DNA of 42,142 nt from Thermoanaerobaculia bacterium (GCA_035259605.1 DATFWF010000056.1:1-42142); one strand, 5' to 3'; shown: positions 8,729 through 31,092, counted from the first letter of the stretch. The notes: generated by a model from the letters alone, not told the origin. Translations and numbers: made by a program.

Positions 8729-11299
8729 TCACCGAACGCCGGTCACGACGACGAGGTCGTCGAGGACCCGGCGGTAGGAGTAGATCCAGGACTTGCCGTC
8801 CGCGGACAGCTCGATCGGGAACACGTTGAGGACGCCGGCAGGGTCCACAGGAGCGAAAGAGCGGAGAAGCTCCCGCCGTCCGGTCGCGAAATCGACGCGA
8901 TAGACCGGGGCCGGCATCTTCCGGTAGTCGGCCGCGTAGAAAGCGCGGCCGTCTTCGCTCCATCGGATGAAAGACTCCTCCGGTCCGATGCCCGGCATCG
9001 GCCGGGGTTCTCCTCCGGCGAGCGGATACAGCATGAATCTCCTGTCCGGCGCGACCACCACCACGAACCTGCCGTCAGACGTGACTCCATTGTTGACCAT
9101 GCTGACGCCCTCCGGCGTGAACACGCGGATTTCTCCGGAGTCCGTGTCCACCAGGGAAAGGCGGACGCCGCGTTCGCCCTCGCTCGCCCGCACGATGACG
9201 TGGCGGCCGTCCGGCATCCAGATGGCCCATTGAAGAAGAGGGCCCCGGAGCGGGACGGTTTTCGGCGCGCCGGCGCCGGTCGGCAGGATCAGGAGCTGCG
9301 GCGGATTGTCCGGGCTCTGGGCGAGCACGCGCCGGCCGTCGGGCGAAAGCGCCATGACGGCACCCTTGCCGAGGAGAACCGCGGGAGAGCCGTCGGTCTT
9401 GCGGATGTAGGCGAGATAGCTTCCGCCTCCGGTCGCCGCTCCCTGCTCGCCGAAGAGCATCGTCCGGCCGTCCGCGGACAGGTCGGAGGGAAACGACCAG
9501 TCATGCCAGGAGAGATTGCGCTCGCTCGTCTCCCCGGGGGCGAGACCCACGATCTCGCGGCGCCTCTGGTTGCTCGTCAGGAGGACGCGGCCGTCCCGCG
9601 AGACGTCCCGGAGGGAGGCCGGTCCGAGCGTCGCGAGGAGCCTGCGCGATTTTCCCGAGGGCTCGACGGCGGCAAGGCCGTTGCCCGTATACCAGACTTC
9701 GTCGGCCTTCGGCGACCAGGTCAGGCCGCCGATCGAAGTGGAGATCTCGCTCCGGAAGAGGCGGCGGCCGGACGTATCGATGACGGCCACGCGGCCGAGC
9801 CCGTCGCCGCGCTGCGGGTGCTCCGCGTAGGCGATTCGCCGGCCGTCGGGCGAGACTCGCGGCAGGTCCAGCCACCCGGGATACTTCGCGAGGACCTTTC
9901 CGATCGGGTACTCCAGCTGCCACTGGCCCGCCTCCGGCCGGGTGATCGCGAGCTGCTGTCCGTCGGGCGACCAGTCCGCGTCGGTGACGTTGTCGGCGAC
10001 CTCCCTCGGCGCGCCGCCGTTGATCGGCACGCGGGCGAGTGTTCCGACGGACTCGAAGCCGACGAGGAAGCGTCTCCGCAGCAGGATCGCGAGCTCGCTC
10101 GAGGACGAGACGGCAAGGACCGACGCCGAAGGCTGGCCCAGCGACCGCGACTCCGGCGAATCCGGCTGCGTCGCGAAGATCTCGCTGGGTGCGCCGTCCC
10201 ACGCGGCGGAGTAGACGATCGTCCTTCCATCCGGCGCGAAGCGGGCTCCCGAGATCGTTCCCTTGCGGAAAGCGACCTGCTGGTAAACCGGCTGGGCCGC
10301 CGCCGAAGCGCCCGGCTGCAGCCGCCCGGCGAGGGCCGCGAGGATGGCGCCGAGCAGAATGCCGGCCGCGGCGGGCAGCAACCAGCCTCGCCGGGGGCGC
10401 GCCGGAGAGGGACCGAGGGGCGCGGCGCCCGACGTCTCGGAGAGATGATCGCGCACGCTCTCGATATCGCGTGCCAGGTCTTTCGTCGAGGCGTAGCGTC
10501 CGTCGGGCTCCTTGGCCAGGCAGCGCTCGATCGTCCAGCGGAGCGGTGGCGGAGCGGCGGGATTGAGCTTCGCGATCGGCTGCGGGTCTTCCCGGACGAT
10601 CGCGGCGAGGGTCTCCACGCCCGTCTTGCGCTGGAAGGCGCGTTCCCCGGTCGCCATCTCGTAGAGGATCGAGCCGAGCGAGAACTGATCCGAGCGGAAA
10701 TCCACGGGATGCCCCGCCGCCTGCTCGGGCGACATGTAGCCGACGGTCCCCATCACGGTGCCCGGCTGCGTGGCCGCCGCGCCGGCGGTCATCGTGGGAC
10801 CTTCCGGGACGGCGGGCGCGGCCTCCGCCAGCTTCGCCAGCCCGAAGTCGAGGATCTTGACGTAGCCGTCTTTCGAGACGACGAGGTTCTCCGGCTTCAG
10901 GTCGCGGTGGACGATCCCGGCGGCGTGCGCGGCCGCGAGACCCTCGGCAACCTGCGAGCCGATCTCTAGGACGCGCCGGACCGCGAGGGGGCCCGAGACG
11001 AGAAGCTCGCGGACCGTCCGGCCTTCGACGAGCTCCATGGCGATCCAGACCGAGCCGTCCGACTCGCCGACATCGTGGATCGTGACGATGTTCGGATGCG
11101 CGAGCGCCGAGGCCGCGCGCGCCTCCTGCTCGAACCGGGCGCGGCGCGACGCGTCCGCGGCGACGTCGGTGGGCAGGACCTTCAGCGCAACTTCGCGCCC
11201 GAGCCTCCCGTCGCGGACCCGGTAAACCTCTCCCATCCCGCCCGCACCGAGAGGCGAGACGATTTCATAAGGTCCAATCCGGGAGCCCGAGCTGAGCAT
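8729..11299 (-). CDS. Membrane Ser/Thr protein kinase with an extracytoplasmic TolB/PD40-like beta-propeller
   Basis: G-loop GAGGMGEVY, VALKVL, HRDLKPEN, DFGLAK. A single TM helix, GWLLPAAAGILLGAILAALAG. The C-terminus carries repeated SPDG motifs (WSPDGQQLA, VSPDGRRIAY, LSPDGRRVLA, WMPDGRHV). Confidence 0.9.
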   Translation of the reverse strand: MLSSGSRIGPYEIVSPLGAGGMGEVYRVRDGRLGREVALKVLPTDVAADASRRARFEQEARAASALAHPNIVTIHDVGESDGSVWIAMELVEGRTVRELLVSGPLAVRRVLEIGSQVAEGLAAAHAAGIVHRDLKPENLVVSKDGYVKILDFGLAKLAEAAPAVPEGPTMTAGAAATQPGTVMGTVGYMSPEQAAGHPVDFRSDQFSLGSILYEMATGERAFQRKTGVETLAAIVREDPQPIAKLNPAAPPPLRWTIERCLAKEPDGRYASTKDLARDIESVRDHLSETSGAAPLGPSPARPRRGWLLPAAAGILLGAILAALAGRLQPGASAAAQPVYQQVAFRKGTISGARFAPDGRTIVYSAAWDGAPSEIFATQPDSPESRSLGQPSASVLAVSSSSELAILLRRRFLVGFESVGTLARVPINGGAPREVADNVTDADWSPDGQQLAITRPEAGQWQLEYPIGKVLAKYPGWLDLPRVSPDGRRIAYAEHPQRGDGLGRVAVIDTSGRRLFRSEISTSIGGLTWSPKADEVWYTGNGLAAVEPSGKSRRLLATLGPASLRDVSRDGRVLLTSNQRRREIVGLAPGETSERNLSWHDWSFPSDLSADGRTMLFGEQGAATGGGSYLAYIRKTDGSPAVLLGKGAVMALSPDGRRVLAQSPDNPPQLLILPTGAGAPKTVPLRGPLLQWAIWMPDGRHVIVRASEGERGVRLSLVDTDSGEIRVFTPEGVSMVNNGVTSDGRFVVVVAPDRRFMLYPLAGGEPRPMPGIGPEESFIRWSEDGRAFYAADYRKMPAPVYRVDFATGRRELLRSFAPVDPAGVLNVFPIELSADGKSWIYSYRRVLDDLVVVTGVR

Positions 11300-14409: not shown

Positions 14410-15230
14410 GCGACGGGGGCCCGGAGGCTCCGGTCGAGGATGCGCGAATCGCCGAGGCGGCCGGAGTACTCCGCGAAGAAAGGCGTCGGACCGCGCCAGC
14501 GCAGCTCCTCGACGTCGGCAAAGAGCGCCGCGTCGTCCCGCAGCGTCGCGAGCTTCTTGAAGAGCAGGGCGAGGCCGCGGCGCTCGCCGATGACTTCCTC
14601 GGGGAAGTCCTCGATCGCGCCGTGGCGGTTGATCAGCCTCGCGGCGCCGACCGGTCCGATCCCGGAGAGGCCGGGGTAGCCGTCGGCGGAGTCGCCGACG
14701 AGGGCCAGGTAGTCGGGGATCCGGATCGGGTCCACGCCGAACTTCTCGCGGACTCCGGCTTCGTCGCGGATCCGGTTCGTCCGCCGGTCCGCCTGGACGA
14801 CGCGGCCGCCGCGGACGCACTGGCCGAGGTCCTTGTCGGGAGTCCAGATGCAGACCTTCTCGACGCGCGGGTCTTCCGCGGCGATCCGCGCGGCCGATGC
14901 GAGGGCGTCGTCGGCCTCGAGCTCGATCATCGGGAAGACGGCGACTCCCAGCGCGGCCAGCGCCTCCTCGAGCGGATGGAACTGCGCGAGGAGCTCCCGT
15001 TCCACTCCCTCGCTGGTTTTGTACCCGGGCCAGAGCCGGTTGCGGAACGATTCGATAATGTGATCCGTCGCCACACCGACGTGCGTCGCTCCCTTCTCGA
15101 TCATCTCGAGAACGGTGTGGAGCACTCCCGCGGCGGCTCCGAGCGGCCGCTTCGAAGCCTCGGGGACCCGGCGCAGGCCGTAGTAGTGCCGGAAGAGCTC
15201 GTAAGTCCCGTCGACGAGGTGAACGATCAT
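14406..15230 (-). CDS. Stand-alone 5'-3' exonuclease / flap endonuclease (Pol I N-terminal-domain family)
   Basis: MIVHLVDGTYELFR matches typical family N-termini. Acidic clusters ELEADDALAS. H3TH motif LVGDSADGYPGLSGIGPVGAARLI. The track start at 15260 is an alternative; both have weak SD sequences. Confidence 0.8.
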   Translation of the reverse strand: MIVHLVDGTYELFRHYYGLRRVPEASKRPLGAAAGVLHTVLEMIEKGATHVGVATDHIIESFRNRLWPGYKTSEGVERELLAQFHPLEEALAALGVAVFPMIELEADDALASAARIAAEDPRVEKVCIWTPDKDLGQCVRGGRVVQADRRTNRIRDEAGVREKFGVDPIRIPDYLALVGDSADGYPGLSGIGPVGAARLINRHGAIEDFPEEVIGERRGLALLFKKLATLRDDAALFADVEELRWRGPTPFFAEYSGRLGDSRILDRSLRAPVA

Positions 15231-15268
15231 TCCCGGGTAGAGGATATCTGCCTGTACCATACGGGGCC

Positions 15269-18200
15269 TTGTTGTTCAGGGCGGGTCGGAAACGGGTCGG
15301 CGCCGCGGCGGTCGTCCTCGCGGTCTTCTGCGGAATCGCTTTGGGGTCGCGCTCGGCCAAGACGAGCGGGGACGGGAGTGTCCTGAGCTTCGCCGGAAAT
15401 GCGCAGCACACCGCCATTTTCGATCCGCCCGCGCAGGACCTGAACGCGATCCACTGGTCCAAGTCGATCGACCTGAACAACACCGCCCTGGCCCATTACG
15501 GGGCGCCGCTCATCACCGCCGCCAACTCGGTCCTCGCCCCGGTCAAGATCTCCGCCAGCGGCTTTCGCGTCGACGCGTTTCGGGGCTCCGACGGAAGCGC
15601 GAAGTACTCGCTGGCGAGCGACTACGTTCTGCCGCCGCACAACTGGATCCCAACTTACCAGCCGGTGGTCGCCCCGGCGGCCGGAGGGCTGCGGATCTAC
15701 TATCCCGGCGCGGGCGGGACGGTCCTCGCCACGGACGATCCCGACTCCGACACTCCCGCCGCCGCCGCGCGCAAGGTCTTCTACACGTCCCTCGCCAATT
15801 ACCAGGCCAGCGCCGCCGCCTTCAACGCCGCCATCTTCATCAACACCCCGATCACCGCCGACGCCGCGGGGAACATCTTCTTCGGGTTCCGCGTGGTTCA
15901 GGCCCCGCCGGCTCCGTTCAACACGATGCAGAGCGGCTACGCGCGGATCGATTCGAGCGGCAGCGGCACCTTCATCGCGGCCGGAGCGGCGGCGGCGGAC
16001 GCCATGATCGACAACGACTCGCACAACTGCGCACCGGCGCTCTCCAACGACGGGACCACGCTCTACGTCGTCGTGAAGGGGCTCGAGAACTACACCTACC
16101 TCCTGGGGCTGAACTCGACGACGCTCGCGACGAAGTTCAAGGTCTTCCTCAAGGACCCGCGAAACACCAACGGCGCGACCGTCCCGGACGACGCGACCGC
16201 GTCTCCCACGGTCGGCCCCGACGGCGACGTGTACATCGGAGTCCAGGGCAACCCCCTCAACGGGGGGCGCGGCTTCCTGCTCCACTTCAACGCCGACCTG
16301 ACCGTCGCGAAGACCCCGGGCGCGTTCGGCTGGGATTACACGGCAGCGCTCGTGCCGGCGGCGATGGTCCCGTCGTACACGGGAAGCTCGAGCTACCTGA
16401 TCTTCGCCAAGTACAACAACTACGCCAACCTCGGTGACGGCAACGACGGGATCAACAAGATCGCTCTACTGGACCCCAGCGCGACGCAGGTGGATTCGCA
16501 CCCCTCGGCCTCGGGCATCCTCGTCATGCGCGAGGTCCTGACCGTGGCCGGGCCAACCCCGGACTCGGAAAACCCCTCGGTTCCCGACGCGGTCCGGGAA
16601 TGGTGCATCAACACGGCGGCCGTCAACCCCGCGACCAACAGCGTCTTCACACCGAGCGAGGACGGACACCTCTACCGCTGGAACCTGGCGACGAACTCGT
16701 TCTCGCAGGTCGTCACATTGACTCCCGGGGTCTTCGAGCCCTACGTCCCGACCGTGATCGGCCCGGGCGGCGTCGTCTACTCGTTGAACGGCGGCACGCT
16801 CTTCGCGCTCAGCGGCCTCCCGGGGGTTTCCGTCACGCTGGACTCCTCGCTGCCCGACGTGCGCGCCGCGGTCGCCGGAGATGCGGTGACGTTCACCGCG
16901 ACCGTCGTCTCTTCGGGCCTGAGCCCGTCCACCCCCACCGGCACGGTCACCTTCGAAGACACGACGTACTTCGTCATCGATTTCGACGACCTCGGCACCA
17001 CGACGACCACGCTCGCCGCCAACGTTCCGCTCGACGAGTCGGGCCATGCGTCGGTCACGACCTTGGCGCTGGAGGCGGCGAACCATTTCGTCAAGGCGAC
17101 CTACAGCGGCGACGGCAGTTTTTCGGCCGGGAGCGCCACGCTCGTCCAGAAGATCCACGCGAAGGCGACGATGACCTCGCTCGCGTCGCTCCCGAATCCC
17201 TCGACGCCGGGCCAGAGCGTGACCTTCACCGCGACGGTCGCGGGGTCTCCCGCGGTCCCGGAGTTCCCGACCGGGATGGTGACCTTCCTCGAAGGCGCGG
17301 CCGTTCTCGCGCAGTCGCCGTTGAACGGGAGCGGGCAGGCGGCGTTCGGCACGTCCGCGCTCGCGGCCGGCGGGCACACCGTGACCGCCCGCTACGCCTC
17401 CGACACGCACTTCGCGGCGAGCAGCGGCTCGACCGGCCAGATCGTCCAGGGCGCGGTAACCCTGACGCCGACCTCCACTCCCACGGCGACTCCGACGCCG
17501 ACCTCGACTCCCACCGCCAGGGCGCAGGCGCAGGCGCTCTCCGTGGACGCTGCCGCCAACGGCGGCTTTTCCAACGGCAACGGAGTGCTCGAGCCGGGGG
17601 AGCGAGCCTTCGTCCGGCCGGCGTGGAAGAACGTCAGCGGCGCGCTCCTCGCGCTGGCCGGCGCCGCGTCCTCGTGGACGGGGCCCGGCGCGGCGTACGC
17701 GGTCTACGACACGGCCGCGGACTACGGCTCGATCGCCGGCGGCGCCACCGCCGACTGCGGCTCGGCGACGGGCAACTGCTACGAGGTGGGCGTTTCCAAC
17801 CCGGCCAGCCGGCCGGCCACGCACTGGGACGCGACCTTCACCGAGTCGCTGAACGACGGCGATCCGCCGAAATCCTGGCGCATGCACGTGGGCGGCAGCT
17901 TCACCGACGTGCCGGCCGGCCATGTCTTCTACTCCTTCATCGAGCGGATCCTGCACAACGGGATCACGGTCGGCTGCGGTCCGGGCGCCTTCTGTCCGGA
18001 CGATTCGGTTTTCCGCCTCCAGATGGCGGTCTTCCTCGCGAGGGCGCAGGCGGGCGGCGACGCGAGCGTCCCCGCGAGCGGAACGGCGCAGGGGAATCCC
18101 TACAACTGCGCCGGCGGCGGCGTCTCGCAGTTCACCGACGTGGATCCGACCGATCCCTTCTGCCGCCACGTCCATTACATCTTCGCGACCGGCGTGACGA

Positions 18201-18556
18201 CCGGGTGCGTCACGACACCGCCGCGCCAGTACTGCCCGGGCGATCTCGTCAACCGCGCCCAGATGGGGCTTTTCGTCGCGCGGGCCGTGGCCGGAAGCGA
18301 CGCAGCGGTTGCGACGACCTACGGACCCGATCCTTCGACCGGACGAAGCTACAGCTGCAATCCGGCGACTCCGAACCTGGCCTTCACGGACATCTCGACG
18401 GCCGACTTCTTCTGCCGCCACGTCCATTTCCTCTGGGCGAAGAACGTCATCTCGGGATTCCCGGACGGGACGTACGGTCCGTCGCTCCTCGTCTCGCGCG
18501 GCGCGATGGCGAAGTTCCTCGCCAACGGGTTCAACGTCACGCTCTACGGACCATAG
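15269..18556 (+). CDS. Large secreted protein: beta-propeller-like N-terminal region, two Ig-like repeats, a Thr/Pro linker, and a C-terminal cassette with three SLH-like modules
   Basis: TTG start followed by signal peptide MLFRAGRKRVGAAAVVLAVFCGIALG. Ig-like repeats GDAVTFTATV...PTGTVTFEDT and GQSVTFTATV...PTGMVTFLEG. Three modules of the form FTD[VI]...G[IV]..G...R.QMA.F.AR in the last ~220 aa. Confidence 0.85.
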   Translation: MLFRAGRKRVGAAAVVLAVFCGIALGSRSAKTSGDGSVLSFAGNAQHTAIFDPPAQDLNAIHWSKSIDLNNTALAHYGAPLITAANSVLAPVKISASGFRVDAFRGSDGSAKYSLASDYVLPPHNWIPTYQPVVAPAAGGLRIYYPGAGGTVLATDDPDSDTPAAAARKVFYTSLANYQASAAAFNAAIFINTPITADAAGNIFFGFRVVQAPPAPFNTMQSGYARIDSSGSGTFIAAGAAAADAMIDNDSHNCAPALSNDGTTLYVVVKGLENYTYLLGLNSTTLATKFKVFLKDPRNTNGATVPDDATASPTVGPDGDVYIGVQGNPLNGGRGFLLHFNADLTVAKTPGAFGWDYTAALVPAAMVPSYTGSSSYLIFAKYNNYANLGDGNDGINKIALLDPSATQVDSHPSASGILVMREVLTVAGPTPDSENPSVPDAVREWCINTAAVNPATNSVFTPSEDGHLYRWNLATNSFSQVVTLTPGVFEPYVPTVIGPGGVVYSLNGGTLFALSGLPGVSVTLDSSLPDVRAAVAGDAVTFTATVVSSGLSPSTPTGTVTFEDTTYFVIDFDDLGTTTTTLAANVPLDESGHASVTTLALEAANHFVKATYSGDGSFSAGSATLVQKIHAKATMTSLASLPNPSTPGQSVTFTATVAGSPAVPEFPTGMVTFLEGAAVLAQSPLNGSGQAAFGTSALAAGGHTVTARYASDTHFAASSGSTGQIVQGAVTLTPTSTPTATPTPTSTPTARAQAQALSVDAAANGGFSNGNGVLEPGERAFVRPAWKNVSGALLALAGAASSWTGPGAAYAVYDTAADYGSIAGGATADCGSATGNCYEVGVSNPASRPATHWDATFTESLNDGDPPKSWRMHVGGSFTDVPAGHVFYSFIERILHNGITVGCGPGAFCPDDSVFRLQMAVFLARAQAGGDASVPASGTAQGNPYNCAGGGVSQFTDVDPTDPFCRHVHYIFATGVTTGCVTTPPRQYCPGDLVNRAQMGLFVARAVAGSDAAVATTYGPDPSTGRSYSCNPATPNLAFTDISTADFFCRHVHFLWAKNVISGFPDGTYGPSLLVSRGAMAKFLANGFNVTLYGP
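17464..17514 (+). repeat. Imperfect 30-nt-period direct repeat encoding the Thr/Pro linker
   Basis: GACGCCGACCTCCACTCCCAC (17464-17484) and GACGCCGACCTCGACTCCCAC (17494-17514) differ at one base. Together they encode TPTSTPTATPTPTSTPTA. Confidence 0.8.
17570..18553 (+). repeat. Paralogous 984-nt (328-codon) C-terminal cassette, copy A
   Basis: SNGNGVLEPGE...ATHWDAT...SFTDVP... to the C-terminus is colinear, with no length difference, with 24834..25817. One 29-nt stretch differs by a single base (TCACGACACCGCC[G/T]CGCCAGTACTGCCCG). Confidence 0.85.
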
Positions 18557-21916: not shown

Positions 21917-22115
21917 GAGGAGACTCCGGAAGCTGTCTCGCGAGACTTGACACGGAAGACACCGCTCCGCCGAATCGCGATATCATCACTGTCTCGACCC
22001 ATTGCTCCGGTATCGACGACGCGTTCGGACAGGCGAACGCTTGGAATTGTTCCACTGCGTTCGCGCTGGCGCGCCGTGATCCGGCGCGCCGGGCCGGGAC
22101 AAGGAGGGTACGGCG

Positions 22116-25100
22116 ATGCGGCCCAAGGGATTGCTGGCGGTCGGTCTCCTCGTCTCGATTCTCTCGGTCGGAGCTTCGTCCTTCTCGCCGGGACCGGTTC
22201 CTCCGGCGCGCATCGTGGACGTGAGTAACGCGGAAGACGCGGATGCCGACCTTCCTCCCGGCATGGCGTGGATGATCGACAAGGAAACCTACCTGCGCCT
22301 GCGCAACGAACATATCAGCCGGCTCCGGGGCATCGAACCCGGTTACCTCCTCGATCCGGGTCTTCGAACCGAAGCGGTCCGGCAGATGGACCGACAGATG
22401 GCGCTTCAGAGCCTCCGCCGGGAGCTCGCGCCGAACACACCGGAAGCGGCCGCCTGGACTCCGCTCGGCCCCGCTCCGCTGTCCAACGGCCAGACCATGC
22501 AGTTCCCCACGACCGCGGCCGTCACCGGCCGCGCCACCTCCATTGCCGTGGACCCGGGCAACTCGAACAAGGTCTACCTCGGCACGGCCCAGGGCGGAGT
22601 GTGGCGCTCGACCGATGGCGGCGCGTCCTGGACGCCGATCTTCGACGCGGGCCAGTCGCTCTCCATTGGCGCGATCGCCCTGGCGCCCTCGGATCCGACG
22701 AAGCTCTACGTCGGGACGGGCGAGGGGAACAACTCCGCGGACTCTTTCTTCGGGGTTGGCGTTTACCGCATCGACAGCGTGGACACCTCGCCGGTCCTCG
22801 TCGGCCCGATCAACCCGCAGATCACGACGGGCACGACCATTCAGGTCACCACCAACTGCTTCACCGGGCGCAGCATCTCGAAGATCCTCGTTCACCCGAC
22901 CGACCCGGCGACGATCTTCGTCTCCACCGCCTTCGGCCTCGGCGGGATCGGGGCTAATTTCCTCTCCTTTTCCTCGCCGCCGCTCGGACTCCTCGGCCTC
23001 TACCGCTCGACCAACGCCACTGCGGCGGCGGGGTTGGTCACCTTCAGCAAGCTCGTCGTGACGACGCAGGGGAGCCTCGACATTCCGGGCACGGGCAACA
23101 CGGACATCACGGACATCGTGCTCGAGCCGGGAAACCCCAACAACCTCCTCGCCGCCGTGCGAGGCTCGACGGCTCCCGGCGGCGGCGTCTTCCTCTCCAC
23201 GACCGCCCTCGCCGCGACCCCAACGTTCACGCAGACGCTGACCCCCGGTCCCATCGGCCTGAACCAGAAGCTCGCGATCAACAAAGTCGGCGCGACGGTC
23301 ACGGTCTACGCCTCCTCCAGCGAAGGTTCCGCCTGCGGCGGAGGGCGGGTTCGGAAATCCGTCGACGGCGGCGCCACCTTTGGCACGCCGCTCCCGGCGG
23401 CCGACGGGTTCTGCGGCGGGCAGTGCTTCTACGACCTCCCGATCGCGGTGGATCCGAACAACGCATCGATCGTTTACGTCGGCGGCCAGGCCCGCTCGAA
23501 CGCGAACACCTGCCCCGACGTCCTCAAGCGCTCCTCGGATGGCGGGACGACCTTCAACCGCGACGACAACGGGCTCCACGCCGACGCCCACGCGTTCGCG
23601 ATGGATCCCCTGACCAACCCGACCACCGTCTGGTTCGCCAACGACGGCGGCGTCTGGAAGCGCCAGGACGCGGCCGCCGGGACGGCCTGGACCAACGCAA
23701 ACACCGCCTCGCTGAGCACGATCCAGTTCCAGAGCGTCGCGGTCCACCCGACCGACAAGGACTTCACCCTGGGAGGCACTCAGGACAATGGCACCGAGTA
23801 CCAGTCGGCGAGCACCGTCTGGTCCAGCGCCGCGAGCGGCGACGGCGGCTTCACGCTCGTGGATCAGAGCGCGACCGACACCGGCGCCAACATCAAGGCG
23901 ATCTACCACACGTACTTCAACGCCAAGAACTTCCTGATCGGCTTTCAGCGGGCGGAGAACGGCGCCTGCCTCGCCATCAAGGATTCCTGGCCGTCGCGCG
24001 GCTTCGGCCTGGGCAACAACCCGTCCACGACGACCTGCGACGGGACTGCCCTCGCGGCGCCCAACGGTCTGGCAGGGACGGACGATGTGCTCTTCTACGC
24101 GCCGATGGCCCTGGGGCCCGGCAGCCCGAACACCCTCTATTTCGGAACCGACAAGCTCTACCGCTCGTCCGACCGCGGCGACACGATGACGGCGGTCAGC
24201 CAGGTCATCTCGGCGGGCAACCCGGTCAGCGCGATCGCGATCCACCCGGCCGACGACAACATCCGGATCGTCGGCACGAGGAACGGCCTGGTCTTCGGCA
24301 CGATTACCGGGGCGAACCCGCTGGTTACTTTTGGCTTCACGGCGCCGACCAACGCCAGCGGCAGCGCGAACAAGTACGTCTCCCGCATCGCCATCGACCC
24401 GATCAACGCCAACACGGCGTACGTGGCGCTGTCGTACTACACCAATCCTTCCAACGCGGGGCAGGTCTGGAAGACTACGAACTTCAACACGGCCCGCGCC
24501 GGCGACGCGCCGGAAGGCGCTCCGAGCTGGAGCCCGGTCAGCAACGGGATCCCAAACGTTCCCGTCAACGCGCTGGCGATCGACCCGGTATGCGCTGACC
24601 ACCTCTGGGCCGGCACCGACATCGGCGTTTACGAGACAACTGACGGCGGGGCCAACTGGACGCCGTTTGGCACGGGTCTTCCCCGGGTCGCGGTGTTCGA
24701 TCTGGCGCTCCAGAACTCGAGCCGGACTCTCCGCGCCGCGACTCACGGCCGCGGGATGTGGGAGGCGAAGTTGAACGGCCCGTGCGCGAACCTCTCCGAC
24801 CAGGGGATGGTCGTGGACCCGACCGTGGATTCCTCCAACGGCAACGGGATCCTCGAGCCGGGAGAGAGAGTCCTCGTCAAGCCGTCCTACAAGAACGTCT
24901 CCGGGAGCACGGTGGGCAGCCTTTCCGGAACCGCTTCGAATTTCACCGGCCCTGCAGGCCCGATCTACACGATCAACGACGGGACCGCGAGCTACGGGTC
25001 GATCGGGGCCGGCGCCACGGTCCAATGCACGGACTGCTACGAGATGACCGTGTCCAATCCCGGCGTCCGTCCGGCGACGCACTGGGACGCGACTTACGGG

Positions 25101-25820
25101 GAAACGCTCAACAACGGCGCGCCGCTCGTCACTCGCAAGCTCCACGTCGGGTCGAGCTTCACGGACGTGCCGACCAACCACGTCTTCTACCAGTTCGTCG
25201 AGCGGATCTTCCACGCCGGGATCACGACCGGCTGCCTCACGGGGACGACCTACTGCCCGGATGACAACGTCTTCCGGCTCCAGATGGCCGTCTTCATCGC
25301 GCGCTCGCAGGCGGGCGGTGACGCCAACATCCCCGTCTCCGGCTCGGCGCTGGGCAACCCCTACAACTGCGTCTCGGGCGGACAGTCCCAGTTCACGGAC
25401 ATCGCTCCGGACAACCCGTTCTGCCGGCACGTTCACTACATCTTCGGTACCAACGTGACGACCGGCTGCATCACGACACCGCCTCGCCAGTACTGCCCGA
25501 GCGACAACGTGACTCGCGGACAGATGGCGCTCTTCATCGCGCGCGCGGTCGCCGGCGGGGACGCGAACGTTCCGGTGACGTACGGGCCCGACCCCGTGAC
25601 GGGACGGAGTTACTCCTGCAACCCGGGCACGCCGAATCTCCACTTCATCGACATCACGACGTCGGACATCTTCTGCCGCCACACGCATTTCCTCTGGGCC
25701 AAGGACGTGATCTCCGGCTTCCCGGACAACTCCTACCAACCGAACCTGAACGTCAGTCGCGGCGCGATGTCGAAGTTCCTGGCCAACGGGTTCAACATCA
25801 AGCTCTACCCCGGCTCATGA
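22116..25820 (+). CDS. Large secreted BNR/Asp-box repeat beta-propeller protein (VPS10/GH74/sialidase-like) with the same C-terminal triple SLH-like cassette
   Basis: AGGAGG lies 8 nt before ATG 22116, followed by a signal peptide. Asp-boxes WRSTDGGASWTP, RKSVDGGATF, KRSSDGGTTF, YETTDGGANWTP. The C-terminal 328 aa are paralogous to 17570..18553. Confidence 0.85.
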   Translation: MRPKGLLAVGLLVSILSVGASSFSPGPVPPARIVDVSNAEDADADLPPGMAWMIDKETYLRLRNEHISRLRGIEPGYLLDPGLRTEAVRQMDRQMALQSLRRELAPNTPEAAAWTPLGPAPLSNGQTMQFPTTAAVTGRATSIAVDPGNSNKVYLGTAQGGVWRSTDGGASWTPIFDAGQSLSIGAIALAPSDPTKLYVGTGEGNNSADSFFGVGVYRIDSVDTSPVLVGPINPQITTGTTIQVTTNCFTGRSISKILVHPTDPATIFVSTAFGLGGIGANFLSFSSPPLGLLGLYRSTNATAAAGLVTFSKLVVTTQGSLDIPGTGNTDITDIVLEPGNPNNLLAAVRGSTAPGGGVFLSTTALAATPTFTQTLTPGPIGLNQKLAINKVGATVTVYASSSEGSACGGGRVRKSVDGGATFGTPLPAADGFCGGQCFYDLPIAVDPNNASIVYVGGQARSNANTCPDVLKRSSDGGTTFNRDDNGLHADAHAFAMDPLTNPTTVWFANDGGVWKRQDAAAGTAWTNANTASLSTIQFQSVAVHPTDKDFTLGGTQDNGTEYQSASTVWSSAASGDGGFTLVDQSATDTGANIKAIYHTYFNAKNFLIGFQRAENGACLAIKDSWPSRGFGLGNNPSTTTCDGTALAAPNGLAGTDDVLFYAPMALGPGSPNTLYFGTDKLYRSSDRGDTMTAVSQVISAGNPVSAIAIHPADDNIRIVGTRNGLVFGTITGANPLVTFGFTAPTNASGSANKYVSRIAIDPINANTAYVALSYYTNPSNAGQVWKTTNFNTARAGDAPEGAPSWSPVSNGIPNVPVNALAIDPVCADHLWAGTDIGVYETTDGGANWTPFGTGLPRVAVFDLALQNSSRTLRAATHGRGMWEAKLNGPCANLSDQGMVVDPTVDSSNGNGILEPGERVLVKPSYKNVSGSTVGSLSGTASNFTGPAGPIYTINDGTASYGSIGAGATVQCTDCYEMTVSNPGVRPATHWDATYGETLNNGAPLVTRKLHVGSSFTDVPTNHVFYQFVERIFHAGITTGCLTGTTYCPDDNVFRLQMAVFIARSQAGGDANIPVSGSALGNPYNCVSGGQSQFTDIAPDNPFCRHVHYIFGTNVTTGCITTPPRQYCPSDNVTRGQMALFIARAVAGGDANVPVTYGPDPVTGRSYSCNPGTPNLHFIDITTSDIFCRHTHFLWAKDVISGFPDNSYQPNLNVSRGAMSKFLANGFNIKLYPGS
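24834..25817 (+). repeat. Paralogous 984-nt (328-codon) C-terminal cassette, copy B
   Basis: SNGNGILEPGE...ATHWDAT...SFTDVP...FLANGFNIKLYPGS, the same length and order of motifs as copy A. Confidence 0.85.
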
Positions 25821-25847
25821 CCTGCGGCTGATTTTCACGAGATTCCA

Positions 25848-25882
25848 GCGGAGCCTCCCCGGCGGGGGCTCCGCTTTTGTTT
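25848..25882 (+). terminator. Rho-independent terminator after the BNR/SLH gene
   Basis: 11-bp stem, 25848-25858 pairing with 25864-25874 (GCGGAGCCTCC / GGGGGCTCCGC, one G-U pair), loop CCGGC, followed by TTTTGTTT. Confidence 0.8.
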
Positions 25883-25898
25883 CCGGGCGGAGGCGATC

Positions 25899-26717
25899 AT
25901 TCCGACGATCCCGGTCAAGGGAATCGAGCTCTACTACGAGACCCTGGGCGAGGGAGAGCCGCTCCTGCTCCTCGCGGGCTTCGGATGCGATCCGTCTTTC
26001 TGGGAGCCGGTCGCCGCGCCGCTCGCGGAGCGGTACCGCCTGATCCTCCCGGACAACCGCGGATCGGGGCGGACGAGGTCGGCGGGAAGCTTCACCGCGC
26101 GGGATCTCGCGCAGGACGCGGCGGCCCTGCTCGACGCGCTCGGCGTCGCGAAGGCGCGCGTCGCCGGTCATTCCTTCGGCGGCCAGATCGCGCAGGAGCT
26201 GGCGATCGGTCACCCCGAACGCGTCGCGAGCCTCGCGCTTCTCTCGACGAGCGCCCGGTCGAGCCGCAGGCTGAAGGAGGTTGTCGAGGCCGCCGCGAAG
26301 CTTCCCGCGAGCGCTCCTCCGGAGATCTGCTGTCGGGCCTTCCTCGCGTGGATCTTCACCGAGAAGTTCTTCGAGACCCCGGGCGCGGTCGAAGCTTCTC
26401 TCTCGCGCACTCTCGGCAATCCCCATCCCCCGACGCTCGAGGGACTGGCGGCCCAGGCCGAGGCGATCGGCGCCTTCGACGCGGCCGATCGCGTCGGGGC
26501 GATCCGCTGCCCGACGCTGGTGCTTTCCGGCGCCGCGGACGCTCTCGTCCCTCCGGACCACGCCCGCGAAATCGCCGCGCGAATTCGAGGATCGAGCCTC
26601 GTTCTTCTCGCGCGGGGAGCCCACGACCTGATCCACGAGATCCCCGAAGAGGTCACTGGCGCGCTCCTGGCCTTTTTCGTTGGCAGCTTGACAACTCCTG
26701 CACGTTCCTTTATTTAG
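25899..26717 (+). CDS. Alpha/beta-fold hydrolase with a non-canonical start codon (ATT 25899 or ATC 25896)
   Basis: Frame 3 reads (I)IPTIPVKGIELYYETLGEGEPLLLLAGFG...VAGHSFGGQIA (elbow at 26166-26183)...LVLSGAADALVP...GAHDLIHE to TAG 26715-26717. GGAGG lies at 25889-25893. The first ATG/GTG/TTG in this frame is GTG 26520 (track ORF 26520..26717). Confidence 0.7.
   Translation: MPTIPVKGIELYYETLGEGEPLLLLAGFGCDPSFWEPVAAPLAERYRLILPDNRGSGRTRSAGSFTARDLAQDAAALLDALGVAKARVAGHSFGGQIAQELAIGHPERVASLALLSTSARSSRRLKEVVEAAAKLPASAPPEICCRAFLAWIFTEKFFETPGAVEASLSRTLGNPHPPTLEGLAAQAEAIGAFDAADRVGAIRCPTLVLSGAADALVPPDHAREIAARIRGSSLVLLARGAHDLIHEIPEEVTGALLAFFVGSLTTPARSFI
26688..26716 (+). promoter_or_regulatory. Near-consensus sigma70-type promoter for the Cys-rich protein / BBP7 operon
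   Basis: TTGACA (26688-26693), a 17-nt spacer, then TATTTA (26711-26716), inside the last codons of the hydrolase gene. AGGAG lies at 26781-26785 and the ATG at 26794. Confidence 0.55.
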
Positions 26718-26793
26718 GTGTCACCGAGCGATTGAAGGAACTCCCGCTGGCGGCCATGCTGTCTGAACTTTTGTCTGCAAAGGAGACTGGCCG

Positions 26794-29181
26794 ATGAAGC
26801 GCACGGGTATCGCGGTCCTGCTCTTGGGTTTGGGTCTCGGCCTCTCGGTGAAGCCGGCGTCGGCGCAGAGCGACGACAAGTTCCAGCGGTTCATCCGGAT
26901 TCACAACTCGCTGGACGTTACGGTTTATCCGGTCATCCAGTCGCCGCAGGATGCCCCCGACAAGCCCAACGCGAAGCCGGCAAACTGCGGCACCGGCGGG
27001 CACCTCCGGATCATCGTCAACAACGGGCAGGAGGGCGCGGGGATCAAGAAGGGGGAGACCGTCACCGTCAAGATCCCCAAGGACGTGCCGTGCGCGATCG
27101 GCGGCTTCTACGACGCCTCGAGGATCTACATCCTGAACGCCAACTTCGACTCGTTCGAGAAGCTCCTGAACGAGAACCAGAAGACCCAGCGCTACCCCGG
27201 CTGGGATTACACGAAATACAACCCCTGCGTCGGCTGCTACGTTGGCAAGTCGAGCGCGGACTATGGACACGACGCCCCGGGGCAGCTGCTCGAGTACACG
27301 ATCATTTCCCAGAATCCGGCCACCGGAGACAAGTTCGACGATCCGAACAACACGAGCGGGACCCCGCTGCTCGACTTCGACGTGTCGTACGTGGACGACG
27401 CCTACCTTCCCGTCGCGATGGCCATCGACGACACCGGCGCGACGCAGTTCATGGGAAGCACCTTGAAGTTCGACACGTTCAAGGACAGGCTCACGCAGTT
27501 CTTGACCGACGGAAAATGGTCGCGCTACGCCGCCTACGCGCCGGTGAACTGGGCGGACCCGAACGATTGCACCGCCGGGGTGCCGGGCGACACCAACAAG
27601 ACGAGGTTCTCCTGCCTGGTGGCGAGGATCGACCGCATGCCGTCGGCGAACATCCTGATCATCAACGCCCAGACGGGCGGGACCTCCTCCTTCTATCGGC
27701 CGGCGTGGGACGGCAAGTCGAGAGTGGAATGCAATGCCGCCCTGACGGCGGACCCGGGCGCTAACCTGAAGTGCTCGACCCTGCGGCCGGACGGCGACGG
27801 GCTGACGAGCGGAAACTGCTGTCCGGACAATCAGAAACCCCCCTTCATGCAGGGCTGCTGCGACCTGGAGAAGTTCCTGATCGACAACACGCACCGCAGG
27901 TTCATCCCGGCCAGCAAGGCCTTCAAGCTGAGCAACGACACCCTGGATAATGCCGTGAACCAGTTCCGGAAATGGCAGGGCGCCTCGGTGACGCCCTGCC
28001 GCGGCGCCTCGGAGGCCATCACCTTCGCGGCCGTCAAGGATCCGAAGTTCTTCTGCGACTCCTTCAAGAAGACCGTGGATTTCGTCTGGAAGGAGTTTCT
28101 ACCGCAGTGTGCCAGCCGCGGCGACGCGCAGGACCGGTGCGTCACCGCCGCGATCATCGGCTACGACCTGAAGAACTCGAGCTTCGATCCCTCCATCTGC
28201 AAGTGCCCGAGCGAGGACGAAGCCAAGTGCCCCCGCTCCTGCGCCCTGGAGTCGCAGAGGAACGCCTCCGTCCAGGCGCTGATGCGTGGACTTCCGTGGG
28301 TCCCTCCCGGCGATCCGGCGACCTGCGTGCCCGTGTGCCCCGACGCGAAGACCTGCCCGACCTCCTGCATCCTTCCGATCACGCCTTCGGCCTCGGCCCG
28401 GCAATACAACATGGACAAGTACCTCCACTTCTGGGCCGACTACGGCAACGTCTACAACCTGAATCCCTTCGCGCGCTTTGTGCACAACTACACCAACGGG
28501 CTGGCCGCCCCGGGGGCCTACTCGTTCTCGATCGACGACTTCTACGGGAACTTCGGCGGGCCGGGCTCGACCCTGCTGATCGATGTCGGGGATTTTCAGT
28601 CCCTGCCGAACAAGGAGCCCTTCGATCCGTATAAGCAGTACAGCGTGGGATTCGGGACGGGTTGGCACCATGGCTCCGTCTGCGGCCGGGACGCGTTCCT
28701 GCCGGCGGCGGCGCCCGCCAACGTGGGCTTGAACGCCCCGTTCTCGTTCTGGAAGAACGGCAGCCAGGGCTCGGTGTGCGAAGTGCGCGCCTACGCGACC
28801 GCGGACACGTCGAAGTACATCGCCTTCCAGCTCAAGGAAGTGCCGGTGACTGCCGTGGACCTTTACACGGGGGAGTCGCACACGGCCTACGGGTTGAGCG
28901 GCGTTTTCGCCAACCGGGGCTTCCCAGGAGAGGTTCCGGACGAGAACGACTACTGCAAGAGGATGTCCACCGACACGGACCTCGTTGCCAAGGGGTTCTG
29001 CAAGGCCAACCTCTCGGCGGGGAAGTTGAACCTCGACTACGTCGGAGTCTCGGACGACGCGTGCAAGGGCAAGCCCAACGTGGCCGATTGCGGAAAGCCG
29101 CTGGTGAACCTGAACATGCAGGCGCTGAAGCCGGTTCCCCCGAGTGCGCCGCAGGACCTCGACACTCAGTCGCCGAATTGA
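26794..29181 (+). CDS. Secreted 795-aa cysteine-rich protein of unknown function, with possible thaumatin/GH64-like core motifs
   Basis: Signal peptide MKRTGIAVLLLGLGLGLSVKPASA. I counted 30 Cys, including clusters NCCPD, GCCDL, CKCPSEDEAKCPRSC and CVPVCPDAKTCPTSC. Motifs FIRIHNSLDVTVYPV, LLDFDVSYVDDAYLPVAM and GAYSFSIDDFYG. Confidence 0.8.
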   Translation: MKRTGIAVLLLGLGLGLSVKPASAQSDDKFQRFIRIHNSLDVTVYPVIQSPQDAPDKPNAKPANCGTGGHLRIIVNNGQEGAGIKKGETVTVKIPKDVPCAIGGFYDASRIYILNANFDSFEKLLNENQKTQRYPGWDYTKYNPCVGCYVGKSSADYGHDAPGQLLEYTIISQNPATGDKFDDPNNTSGTPLLDFDVSYVDDAYLPVAMAIDDTGATQFMGSTLKFDTFKDRLTQFLTDGKWSRYAAYAPVNWADPNDCTAGVPGDTNKTRFSCLVARIDRMPSANILIINAQTGGTSSFYRPAWDGKSRVECNAALTADPGANLKCSTLRPDGDGLTSGNCCPDNQKPPFMQGCCDLEKFLIDNTHRRFIPASKAFKLSNDTLDNAVNQFRKWQGASVTPCRGASEAITFAAVKDPKFFCDSFKKTVDFVWKEFLPQCASRGDAQDRCVTAAIIGYDLKNSSFDPSICKCPSEDEAKCPRSCALESQRNASVQALMRGLPWVPPGDPATCVPVCPDAKTCPTSCILPITPSASARQYNMDKYLHFWADYGNVYNLNPFARFVHNYTNGLAAPGAYSFSIDDFYGNFGGPGSTLLIDVGDFQSLPNKEPFDPYKQYSVGFGTGWHHGSVCGRDAFLPAAAPANVGLNAPFSFWKNGSQGSVCEVRAYATADTSKYIAFQLKEVPVTAVDLYTGESHTAYGLSGVFANRGFPGEVPDENDYCKRMSTDTDLVAKGFCKANLSAGKLNLDYVGVSDDACKGKPNVADCGKPLVNLNMQALKPVPPSAPQDLDTQSPN

Positions 29182-29200
29182 GAGGAGTCGGTTTCTTGCC

Positions 29201-30367
29201 ATGAACTACTGCACGATCGGGGCCCTGTCGCTCCTGCTTCTGGCGTGCGCCGCCGCTTCGCCGGCGCAGACCGTCTCGACGGCGAAGACCGCGGCGAACG
29301 ACCCGTTCGCGACGCCGGAGCTGTGGATCAAGGCGGAATACCTGCACTGGTGGGTCAAGGAAGGCTCCGTGGACGTGCCGCTCATCACCGACGGCCTGGT
29401 CGGAGAGTCCACGACGCACGTCCTGCTCGGCGGCGGCGACCTGGAGAACCGGACCCACGACGGGTTCCGGGTCACGTTCGGGTACGGGTCGCACGAGAAG
29501 ATCAACTACGAAGCCAGCCTGATGGCGCTGAAGTCCAAGACCGCCAGCAACAGCGTCTCCTCGTCGGGCCAGCTCGGCTCGGTGGACCTGCTGCTTCCGT
29601 ACTTCGACGCGGTCTCGAATCGCGAAAACGTCACGGAGATCTCGCTGTCCCCTAGCTACGCGGGGGCGGCCGCGGAAGCGCTCACGCGAAACATGACCGG
29701 GGTGGAGCTCAGCTTCGTCAAGCCGTGCGACCACCGCGGGACGATGTCCCTGGATTTCGTGGGCGGCCTGCGCTGGTTCAACCTCTCCGAGAACTTCACG
29801 TTCACGACGAGCAGCCCGTTCATCCCGCCGCAGGCGGTGGACATCTGGCAGACGACCGACCGCTTCGAGACCCGCAACAACTTCTACGGCGTCCAGGGCG
29901 GAATCCGGGCGCACTGGGAGCGCGAGCGATTCCGCGTCGGGGGCGCCATCAAGCTCGGCATCGGGGGGACCGTGCAGAAAGTGGACGTGAGCGGGTTCCT
30001 CCTGACCAACGACTTCAACGGCCTGGCCACGACGCCCCAGCGTTTCGTCGGGGGGTACTTCGCCGTCCCGACCAACATCGGCTCCCGCAAGCGCGCCACG
30101 TTCGGAATCCTGCCCGAGGCGGACGTCAACCTCGATTACCGGATCACCGACTGGCTCTCGGTCGGAGCCGGCTACTCGTTCCTCTACATCAACAGCGTCG
30201 CGCGCCCCGGCGACCAGATCAACCGCACCATCAACACGACGCAGAGCGTCTCCTGGACGGGGGAGCTGAACGCGGCGCTCAAGGGCCCGGCCGAGCCGTC
30301 CTTCGACTTCCACGGCTCCAGCTTCTGGGCCCACGGCCTCAACGCGGGCCTGACCTTCCACTTCTGA
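29201..30367 (+). CDS. BBP7-family outer-membrane beta-barrel protein
   Basis: Signal peptide MNYCTIGALSLLLLACAAASPAQ. Family-like motifs KAEYLHWWVKEG..VPLIT, GGLRWFNLSENF, DRFETRNNFYGVQGG and GAGYSFLYINSVARPGDQI. C-terminal aromatic residue ...GLTFHF. The start lies 19 nt after the upstream stop. Confidence 0.7.
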   Translation: MNYCTIGALSLLLLACAAASPAQTVSTAKTAANDPFATPELWIKAEYLHWWVKEGSVDVPLITDGLVGESTTHVLLGGGDLENRTHDGFRVTFGYGSHEKINYEASLMALKSKTASNSVSSSGQLGSVDLLLPYFDAVSNRENVTEISLSPSYAGAAAEALTRNMTGVELSFVKPCDHRGTMSLDFVGGLRWFNLSENFTFTTSSPFIPPQAVDIWQTTDRFETRNNFYGVQGGIRAHWERERFRVGGAIKLGIGGTVQKVDVSGFLLTNDFNGLATTPQRFVGGYFAVPTNIGSRKRATFGILPEADVNLDYRITDWLSVGAGYSFLYINSVARPGDQINRTINTTQSVSWTGELNAALKGPAEPSFDFHGSSFWAHGLNAGLTFHF

Positions 30368-31009
30368 TCACCCGGTAACCCGGGGACGAGGAGTAGGGGA
30401 GGGCGCTCCGGGGAGGCGCTGGTTCTCGAGGAGCCGTCCGATGACGAGGCGGACGAGGGAGAAGCCGAACTCCGGGTTCTGGTAGTAGAGCTGGAGGACT
30501 TTCTCGTCGGGGATCTCGCCGACCTCGACCTCGGTCTCGCAGACCGCCGTCGCCATGCGGGCGTTCTCGGGTGCGAAGAGGCCGATCTCCCCGAGAAGCT
30601 GCCCCCGCGGGACGGCCACGCCGAGCTCCTCGAGGCGGACCGTCCCCTCGAGAACCATGTACATGCGGCTCGCCTCGTCGCCGCGCCGGAAGAGAACGTG
30701 CCCGGCGGGATATCGGTGATGGGTCATCAGCGGGATCAGCCACTCCCCGGAGATGCTCCCGGTCGAGGCGTCTTTCACGCGCCGGATCAGCGAGCGCATC
30801 TGCCGCAGCCGCAGAACGTTCAACGGAAGCAGGATCGCGTGCAGCGCGGCGATGGGGTAGAGGCGGCCCGCCAGGCCGTAGGTCAGGAAGGCGACGTTGC
30901 TCGCGATCGCCACGGACCGCAGCGGGATCATCGTTTTCATGTAGAAGGCGGAGAAGACCAGGAACGACGCGACGTAACCGGCGATCTCCACCCAGAGCGG
31001 TCGAGTCAT
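30368..31009 (-). CDS. Membrane-anchored cyclic-nucleotide-binding (CAP_ED) domain protein
   Basis: GGAGG lies 6 nt before ATG 31009 (MTRPLWVEIAGYV...). Three hydrophobic helices in the first ~75 aa. The cNMP-binding core is FRRGDEASRMYMVLEGTVRL...GEIGLF...RMATAVCETEVEV. The track start at 31045 is probably an over-extension. Confidence 0.75.
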   Translation of the reverse strand: MTRPLWVEIAGYVASFLVFSAFYMKTMIPLRSVAIASNVAFLTYGLAGRLYPIAALHAILLPLNVLRLRQMRSLIRRVKDASTGSISGEWLIPLMTHHRYPAGHVLFRRGDEASRMYMVLEGTVRLEELGVAVPRGQLLGEIGLFAPENARMATAVCETEVEVGEIPDEKVLQLYYQNPEFGFSLVRLVIGRLLENQRLPGAPSPTPRPRVTG

Positions 31010-31092
31010 CGGGACCTCCGGCGTTATGATCTCCCGCGAAAACACCCGAATCCAGAGTCGTCCCGCCCAATTCGCGGGGAAGGAGCAACGCC

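Follow-up and report, generated by a model that had tools for sequence, protein, structure and literature searches.

A two-gene unit on the forward strand of a 42,142-nt stretch of DNA from a Thermoanaerobaculia bacterium (GCA_035259605.1, DATFWF010000056.1:1-42142; the whole stretch is called the window below) encodes a secreted Cys-rich protein and, 19 nt downstream, a BBP7-type outer-membrane beta-barrel. Our preferred reading, to which we give a probability of about 0.55, is that the two genes form a co-transcribed envelope module acting on a beta-1,3-glucan-like polysaccharide. The Cys-rich protein is a new and distant branch of the superfamily made up of GH64 glucanases and thaumatin-like proteins (TLPs), belonging to neither curated family; its gene recurs next to a BBP7 gene in several phyla; and the same barrel subfamily is paired elsewhere with a second secreted family that also resembles beta-1,3-glucan-active enzymes. 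The unit had been singled out in an earlier description made from the sequence alone (the original prediction), and every feature stated there was found again, at the same positions, in an open reading frame (ORF) list and in the raw sequence.

Family and fold of the Cys-rich protein

The Cys-rich gene (26794-29181, + strand; ATG at 26794, stop codon TGA at 29179-29181) encodes 795 amino acids, exactly 30 of them Cys. The CC pairs (residues 342 and 355) and the two Cys motifs quoted in the original prediction (CKCPSEDEAKCPRSC from residue 469, CVPVCPDAKTCPTSC from residue 511) are present as described; the epithet "giant" is not apt for a protein of 795 amino acids. Searched as a single sequence, it has no Pfam match at E <= 0.1, and NCBIfam and PDB sequence searches (for the latter, phmmer and profile searches from a family alignment, A1, and a broader one, A2) returned nothing significant. 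It does have a family: 67 near-full-length relatives, 35-82% identical and annotated as hypothetical only, are found in metagenome-assembled genomes (MAGs) of Burkholderiales, Casimicrobiaceae, Thiodictyon, Methylomirabilis and others, and an exhaustive profile search (E <= 1e-3) yielded 572 clusters at 50% identity. Residue and Cys conservation was scored on 51 members, and the wider superfamily alignment comprised 38 sequences.

An AlphaFold (AF2) model built from the family alignment (pLDDT 90.1, pTM 0.89) supplied the name that the original prediction could not give. A Foldseek search against PDB produced only six meaningful matches, all from one superfamily: two TLPs (7p23_A, E 4.5e-5, probability 1.00; 4jru, E 3.1e-3) and four GH64 entries (7vtl, E 1.1e-3, probability 0.99; 5h4e, 7vtk and 3gd0, E 2-4e-3), the probabilities over the GH64 entries ranging from 0.69 to 0.99. 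Sub-threshold matches to Pfam Glyco_hydro_64 were returned for 16 of the 51 members, the best at E 3.4e-5, with none for the window protein. Their location was checked in Pfam scans of ten ORFs from a distant subfamily (see below) and twenty further family members. The only GH64 matches in these thirty proteins were short and sub-threshold, on the C-terminal AYSFSIDD motif (profile positions ~320-358 of 370), at 11-16 bits against a gathering score of 27 bits.

Profile alignments (hhalign) of the family with five TLPs, namely osmotin, whose sequence was checked against PDB 1pcv (100% match), and four further PDB-derived sequences, place FIRIHNSLDVTVYPV opposite ATIEVRNNCPYTVWA, and LLEYTI..LDFDVSYVDDAYLPVAM opposite LAEYAL..LDFWDISLVDGFNIPM of osmotin. 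When residues 233-565 were removed, the flanks aligned over osmotin 1-195 (E 0.002, probability 14%), with GAYSFSIDD opposite osmotin DAYSYPQDD. Together these alignments assign an equivalent to each residue of the osmotin REDDD motif: R110 to R44, E167 to E84, D196 to D97, D201 to D102, and D582 to D185. These five residues are near-invariant, being shared by 50-51 of the 51 family members and by 35-38 of the 38 wider superfamily sequences. In TLPs the REDDD motif lines an acidic cleft where beta-1,3-glucan is bound (PMC8949454); it has also been described in the work defining the GH64-TLP superfamily (PMC13251364). By analogy only, E167, D196 and D201 are candidates for GH64-type catalytic residues.

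Membership in either curated family is another matter. Thaumatin (PF00314) is not among the 12 Pfam families returned for the 51 members at E <= 1, and a regular-expression search for the TLP signature PS00316, G-x-[GF]-x-C-x-T-[GA]-D-C-x(1,2)-G-x(2,3)-C (PMC8949454), found it in none of the 51. The canonical set of 16 (or 10) TLP Cys is likewise missing: in hhalign the Cys of osmotin mostly face other residues, and the Cys that the family does conserve (65, 100, 145, 148, 327, 342/343, 355/356 and others) form a pattern unlike that of TLPs. With fold and motif matches on one side, and an absent signature and different Cys on the other, the protein is therefore a distant branch of the superfamily rather than a member of a curated family.

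The polypeptide begins with a Sec-type signal peptide (26794-26865, cleaved between MKRTGIAVLLLGLGLGLSVKPASA and QS) that has no twin-arginine motif; pLDDT is below 50 for residues 1-22. The N-terminal part of the thaumatin/GH64-like beta-sandwich follows (residues ~30-232; 26881-27489), as delimited by Foldseek, the alignment to osmotin and conservation, and carries R110, E167, D196 and D201. It is interrupted by a Cys-rich, mostly helical insertion of ~330 residues (~233-565; 27490-28488), recognized from AF2 secondary structure and Cys conservation, which sits at the place of domain II of TLPs; most of the 30 Cys lie in it, among them both CC pairs and both C..CP..CP..C motifs. The closing strands of the fold (~566-605; 28489-28608) contain the GAYSFSIDD motif with D581 and D582; Y576, S579, D581 and D582 are invariant in the family alignment. 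Last come a C-terminal beta-sandwich (~606-780; AF2 strands at 616-775, with high pLDDT), a disordered tail and the stop codon (28609-29181). The C-terminal beta domain (~180 residues) has no significant structural match in PDB by Foldseek. Over the whole protein, 28 of the 30 window Cys positions are conserved in at least 37 of the 51 members; a subfamily of ~665 amino acids is without the two C..CP..CP..C motifs.

Compared with TLPs (PR-5, osmotin; PF00314), the window protein has the same beta-sandwich fold and REDDD residues, is likewise secreted and disulfide-rich, and has a Cys-rich helical lobe inserted at the same point of the fold. It differs in being four times larger (795 vs ~205 amino acids), in the ~330-residue insertion that takes the place of domain II, in its Cys pattern, in the additional ~180-residue C-terminal beta domain, in the lack of PS00316 and of any Pfam match, and in being a bacterial protein whose gene is linked to that of an outer-membrane barrel. 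With the GH64 laminaripentaose-producing beta-1,3-glucanases (PF16483) it shares a bacterial origin, secretion, and a thaumatin-type barrel with an inserted lobe that forms a cleft. Here the differences are that the window family scores below the gathering threshold, that its catalytic-residue equivalence is by analogy only, and that its inserted lobe is Cys-rich and helical whereas that of GH64 is an alpha/beta domain. Characterized GH64 enzymes are mostly from Gram-positive bacteria, and to our knowledge are not paired with a barrel.

Two variants of the family deserve mention. Some members (P0024, P0025 and P0056; loci L031-L033) are 1060-1190 amino acids long, with C-terminal FG-GAP/VCBS repeats and no adjacent BBP7 gene; the repeats suggest an extracellular location. 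A distant sister subfamily (L016-L021 and L072-L100; for example P0164-P0207) is larger and more divergent, with proteins of 550-800 amino acids that share the N-terminal sandwich and an AYAFSIDD motif at 20-25% identity; the members scanned have no above-threshold Pfam match.

The BBP7 barrel and its secreted partners

The second gene (29201-30367, + strand; 388 amino acids) is a genuine BBP7 gene, as had been proposed: it matches the full Pfam profile (PF07585, positions 1-350 of 350) at E 1.9e-55 and 188.9 bits, against a cut-off of 26. Its signal peptide ends in SPA, followed by QT, and the protein ends in Phe; the family consensus has ASA before QT at the signal-peptidase site and a C-terminal F388. 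In the AF2 model (pLDDT 88.3), a signal helix and a short linker lead into a barrel of ~12 strands, which are long (up to 26 residues). All of its Foldseek matches are outer-membrane barrels, the best being Legionella Dot/Icm porin I (9nh1; E 3e-8, target TM-score 0.65-0.71), with the omptins Pla and OmpT, OpcA and, weakly, FadL and general porins following. The Legionella major outer-membrane protein family (TCDB 1.B.57), to which the model is closest, is predicted to have 12 strands (PMC4827864), in agreement with the ~12 counted here. There is no POTRA or plug domain in the model and no POTRA match in Pfam, so that the 16 strands plus POTRA of two-partner secretion and Omp85 proteins are not what is seen. 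Our literature search found no functional study of BBP7. While the window gene is in itself a full-length family member, the link of such a barrel to secreted proteins resembling glucan-active enzymes is new both for BBP7 and for the Legionella porin I group.

Cys-rich and BBP7 genes are separated by a spacer of 19 nt (29182-29200), as first reported, with GAGGAG at 29182-29187 before the ATG at 29201; a standard scan found no terminator-like site or hairpin between them. The pairing was surveyed in 100 loci, from one genome per species plus metagenome contigs. Of the 47 core-family loci with enough downstream sequence to be evaluated, 22, from several phyla, have BBP7 as the next gene downstream in the same orientation; of 25 evaluable loci in the distant subfamily none does. 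The original prediction had proposed a survey of whether the two genes always occur together. The pairing recurs well beyond chance, but about half of the homologs have no adjacent barrel, and these have unrelated neighbors (an amidase, a HAD hydrolase, a PAP2 protein). A neighbor-joining tree shows linked members scattered among unlinked ones, and its deepest branch carries the linkage, which fits an ancestral linkage followed by repeated loss.

The barrel can also persist by itself. At two loci (L101 and L102) the BBP7 gene is intact and the upstream Cys-rich gene is an internally deleted remnant. In L101 the remnant (9767-10000) retains the promoter and leader, a fragment TNALANKELFDPYKQY and, in another reading frame, the C-terminal end CDKPLVTINTPSLK with its stop codon, so that promoter and leader now lie directly 5' of BBP7; in L102 (4589-4978) an 85-amino-acid ORF is left, in which an N-terminal fragment runs directly into the C-terminal end. 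The pair is thus conserved but separable in both directions: since there are homologs with no barrel and barrels beside deleted remnants, the partnership is not obligatory. The tight, same-strand arrangement of a secreted Cys-rich protein and a true barrel, as originally proposed, is confirmed; that the two genes are co-transcribed is probable, given the 19-nt gap with its ribosome-binding site (RBS), the lack of a terminator, the conserved adjacency, and the placement of the promoter in L101.

A second partner for the same barrel came to light in three further loci. The BBP7 proteins of L103, L104 and L107 are 43-48% identical to the window barrel and of the same subfamily, and each is encoded directly 5' of a gene (L103:6194-8347, L104:6213-8248, L107:5001-6437) for a different secreted family to which Pfam assigns no name. 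Scanned individually, 14 of 31 members of this family weakly match Pfam Glyco_hydro_72, a family of beta-1,3-glucanosyltransferases, the best at 2e-6; the L103 protein itself, as a single sequence, has no Pfam or PDB match, and a PDB profile search was empty. An invariant N184-E185 and an invariant E357 correspond to the clan GH-A pattern. Two other members are without a barrel. The pairing of one barrel subfamily with two unrelated secreted families, each resembling beta-1,3-glucan-active enzymes, is the strongest contextual pointer to a substrate. Long forms of the second family end in a Cys-rich C-terminal region, and the L104 copy looks frameshifted (444 + 238 amino acids); bacterial GH72-like proteins would be notable in their own right.

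Possible functions of the pair

From fold and linkage, the evidence for both of which is solid, we infer a function along the following lines. The Cys-rich protein, exported by Sec and stabilized by disulfides, would bind or hydrolyze a glucan-like polysaccharide, in the periplasm or at the cell surface, by way of an acidic cleft in which R110, E167, D196, D201 and D582 are kept as in the glucan-binding cleft of TLPs. The tall, ~12-stranded barrel would serve the same substrate at the outer membrane, most likely by passing glucan or oligosaccharide across the membrane, less likely as a docking platform for the Cys-rich protein. The layout, a polysaccharide-acting secreted protein co-encoded or co-regulated with a channel, is that of pairs of a glycanase and a small porin, such as KdgM with pectinases and chitoporin with chitinases; KdgM too has 12 strands (PMC4827864). 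The likeness is not one of sequence, however: there is no sequence relationship, loci of the window type are without downstream catabolic genes, and the channel role of BBP7 is a supposition.

A number of observations weigh against such a module. Neither the window nor any of the loci examined has a gene for a sugar transporter, a downstream glycosidase or a glucan synthase close by, and no route past the outer membrane was identified for a Sec-exported Cys-rich protein. As to the fold, Foldseek TM-scores on the target are low (0.3-0.4 overall, 0.24-0.31 for the GH64 entries) because only one domain aligns, giving a partial overlap. No sequence method is significant alone, hhalign probabilities being only 3-14%; the lack of database matches for the window protein and of PS00316 throughout the family adds to this. 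Finally, the indications of co-transcription are indirect only, and about half of the evaluable family loci (25/47) have no barrel, just as there are barrels that persist where the Cys-rich gene has been lost.

The original prediction regarded the pair as a cargo with its barrel. Translocation of the Cys-rich protein by BBP7, or its retention at the surface, as in two-partner secretion, Slam systems or a split autotransporter, would agree with an adjacency that is tight, same-strand and conserved; the long strands would project well past the membrane, pairing with a second secreted family would suit a generic partner, and the FG-GAP/VCBS extensions of some members are typical of extracellular proteins. 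This nevertheless seems unlikely. With ~12 strands and no POTRA, TPR or plug domain, the barrel is a poor candidate for translocating a folded protein of 795 residues, and a folded chain of ~770 residues with about 15 disulfides could not pass such a pore; no Omp85, TpsB or Slam-type barrel is among the structural matches listed (porins, omptins, OpcA, FadL-type); and the barrels left intact by deletion of the Cys-rich gene in L101 and L102, like the barrel-less family loci, show that the two genes can be parted. A polysaccharide made by the cell itself is another conceivable substrate, with the GH64/TLP-like protein (elsewhere the GH72-like one) trimming or transglycosylating the cell's own beta-glucan in the periplasm and BBP7 as exit pore, comparable to AlgL/AlgE, BcsZ/BcsC or PgaB/PgaA. 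As described in Pfam, GH72 enzymes are transglycosylases, with a role in building and not in degradation; a periplasmic glycosidase beside an outer-membrane barrel is a recurring feature of exopolysaccharide systems, and a Sec signal with no evident route through the outer membrane fits a periplasmic location. On the other hand, no synthase or glycosyltransferase was found nearby in the loci examined, and known exopolysaccharide porins have 16-18 strands against the ~12 of the model; we consider this unlikely.

It is quite improbable, in our estimation, that the protein is a released antifungal or antimicrobial effector, damaging fungal walls or membranes as PR-5 and GH64 proteins do, with the barrel only loosely connected, for example as a co-regulated porin: this would leave the recurrent tight linkage unexplained, and here also no way out through the outer membrane was identified, even though the protein shares its fold and acidic-cleft residues with antifungal TLPs (PMC8949454) and GH64 enzymes inhibit Candida (PMC8394091). 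The setting would suit it: the named relatives belong to lineages known from uncultured MAGs (Burkholderiales, Casimicrobiaceae, Rokubacteria, NC10, Thermoanaerobaculia), and the name of one contig (L105) indicates farmland soil. Binding of Fe-S clusters or metals, in place of disulfides, by the C-x-C-P...C-P-x2-C motifs was considered and rejected as very improbable. The matches that suggest it, to Fer4_20 (E 0.23) and a dihydropyrimidine dehydrogenase Fe-S subunit (E 0.36) over residues ~444-550, are very weak and not significant; cofactor-loaded proteins travel by the Tat pathway, but the signal peptide here is of Sec type and has no twin-arginine motif; the motif region is absent from the ~665-residue subfamily, and hence accessory; and both the even number of Cys and the disulfide-rich fold family speak for disulfides.

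What the glucan module would mean depends on how far it is extended. For the family, until now hypothetical only and widespread, with no above-threshold Pfam match among the members and relatives scanned, it offers a fold, a cleft that may be the active site, and a class of substrates that can be put to the test. The GH64/thaumatin superfamily gains a new bacterial architecture, in which the ~330-residue insertion and the C-terminal beta domain are new. The recurrent link between Cys-rich and BBP7 genes, previously undescribed, gives the uncharacterized barrel family its first functional context and its first reproducible genomic partners, both of which point towards beta-1,3-glucan. If confirmed biochemically, the module could be an overlooked route from abundant uncultured soil bacteria to fungal, plant or algal glucans. 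A more speculative extension, which we regard as possible though not probable, is that BBP7 is the dedicated outer-membrane part of an unrecognized beta-1,3-glucan-processing system in soil diderms (Acidobacteriota, Burkholderiales, NC10, Rokubacteria) with interchangeable partners from at least two eukaryote-like, disulfide-rich families, thaumatin/GH64-like and GH72-like. Such a system could attack or feed on fungal cell walls, BBP7 would acquire a function, and plant PR-5 and fungal Gas/Gel proteins would have, in these partners, their first bacterial counterparts operating at an outer membrane.

Candidate promoter, composition and surroundings of the unit

The promoter reported upstream of the Cys-rich gene (26688-26716, + strand) is a sigma-70-like candidate, with TTGACA at 26688-26693, a 17-nt spacer and TATTTA at 26711-26716, and overlaps the last codons of an alpha/beta-hydrolase-like gene. 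Its description as near-consensus holds for one half: the -35 hexamer matches at 6/6 positions and the spacing is 17 nt, but TATTTA matches the -10 consensus TATAAT at only 3/6 and is without the final T, which is why a standard scan called no promoter between 25.5 and 31.5 kb. Nor is TTGACA enriched in the window (3 occurrences, 5.6 expected). Promoter function finds support in three related loci that conserve the block: GCTTGACAA and TATT(T/C)A are invariant in L105 and L106, where the Cys-rich proteins are 69% and 82% identical to that of the window, and in the L101 remnant locus, at a spacing of 17 nt (16 nt in L101). The motif is absent from more distant family members, as would be expected of a lineage-specific promoter. 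Another TTGACA, at 21947-21952, lies ~165 nt 5' of the start of a Sortilin/SLH gene; the nearest TATCAT is 28 nt away, so this is not a canonical promoter.

Between promoter and gene, the 5' leader (26717-26793, + strand) contains the blocks GGAACTCCCG (26737-26746) and TTTTGTCTGC (26769-26778) and an RBS, AAGGAG (26780-26785). In an alignment of upstream regions both blocks are invariant across L105, L106 and L101, and GGAACTCCCG and TTTTGTC are retained there. The conserved leader has no Rfam match to a known RNA or riboswitch at E <= 1; the two conserved blocks might serve as a further promoter, as an operator or as an RNA element of the leader. A GGAAC within the leader resembles the -35 element of ECF sigma factors, and in the window it is followed 18 nt later by TCTGA (26762-26766), which is not conserved.

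The spot G+C counts that had raised the question of horizontal origin (31/60 and 49/60) were reproduced, and the region from 26.5 to 28 kb has a G+C content of 0.62-0.63 vs 0.68 for the window, ~5 points below the mean. This dip is confined to codon positions 1 and 2 and therefore reflects amino-acid composition. At third positions (GC3) the Cys-rich gene (0.903) and BBP7 (0.946) resemble their neighbors (0.88-0.90). Gene order also speaks for residence: L105 shares with the window, in succession, PadR, a Sortilin/SLH giant, an abhydrolase, the Cys-rich gene, BBP7 and a convergent cNMP gene, and L101, whose barrel is named Thermoanaerobaculia at NCBI, is syntenic as well. Recent horizontal acquisition was thus rejected on native GC3 and synteny; an ancient transfer is possible, given the wide phyletic spread of the family.

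Upstream of the unit, and probably not part of it, is the alpha/beta-hydrolase-like gene (25896-26717, + strand; GC3 0.82), whose translation is typical of abhydrolases and ends ...ARSFI at a TAG stop (26715-26717); its syntenic counterpart in L105 matches Abhydrolase_1/6. There is no ATG, GTG or TTG near the 5' end of this ORF, the first sensible codons being ATC/ATT at 25896-25901, and it may have a non-canonical start codon or contain a sequence error. Just 5' of it, a strong terminator-like hairpin (25847-25875) closes the preceding SLH gene. Downstream, the unit is bounded by a convergent gene for a cNMP-binding-domain protein (30368-31045, - strand), syntenic in L101 and L105; as had been noted, TGATCA at 30365-30370 consists of the abutting stop codons of this gene and BBP7.

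Farther upstream are genes for two very large secreted proteins, at 15059-18556 (~1165 amino acids) and 22116-25820 (1234 amino acids), with near-identical C-terminal ends (..KFLANGFN(V/I)..LY). The latter has Sortilin/BNR-type repeats and an SLH domain. Both genes are syntenic in L101 and L105 (as a Big_3_5/SLH protein and a Sortilin/SLH protein), and SLH anchoring is notable in what appears to be a Thermoanaerobaculia-like diderm.

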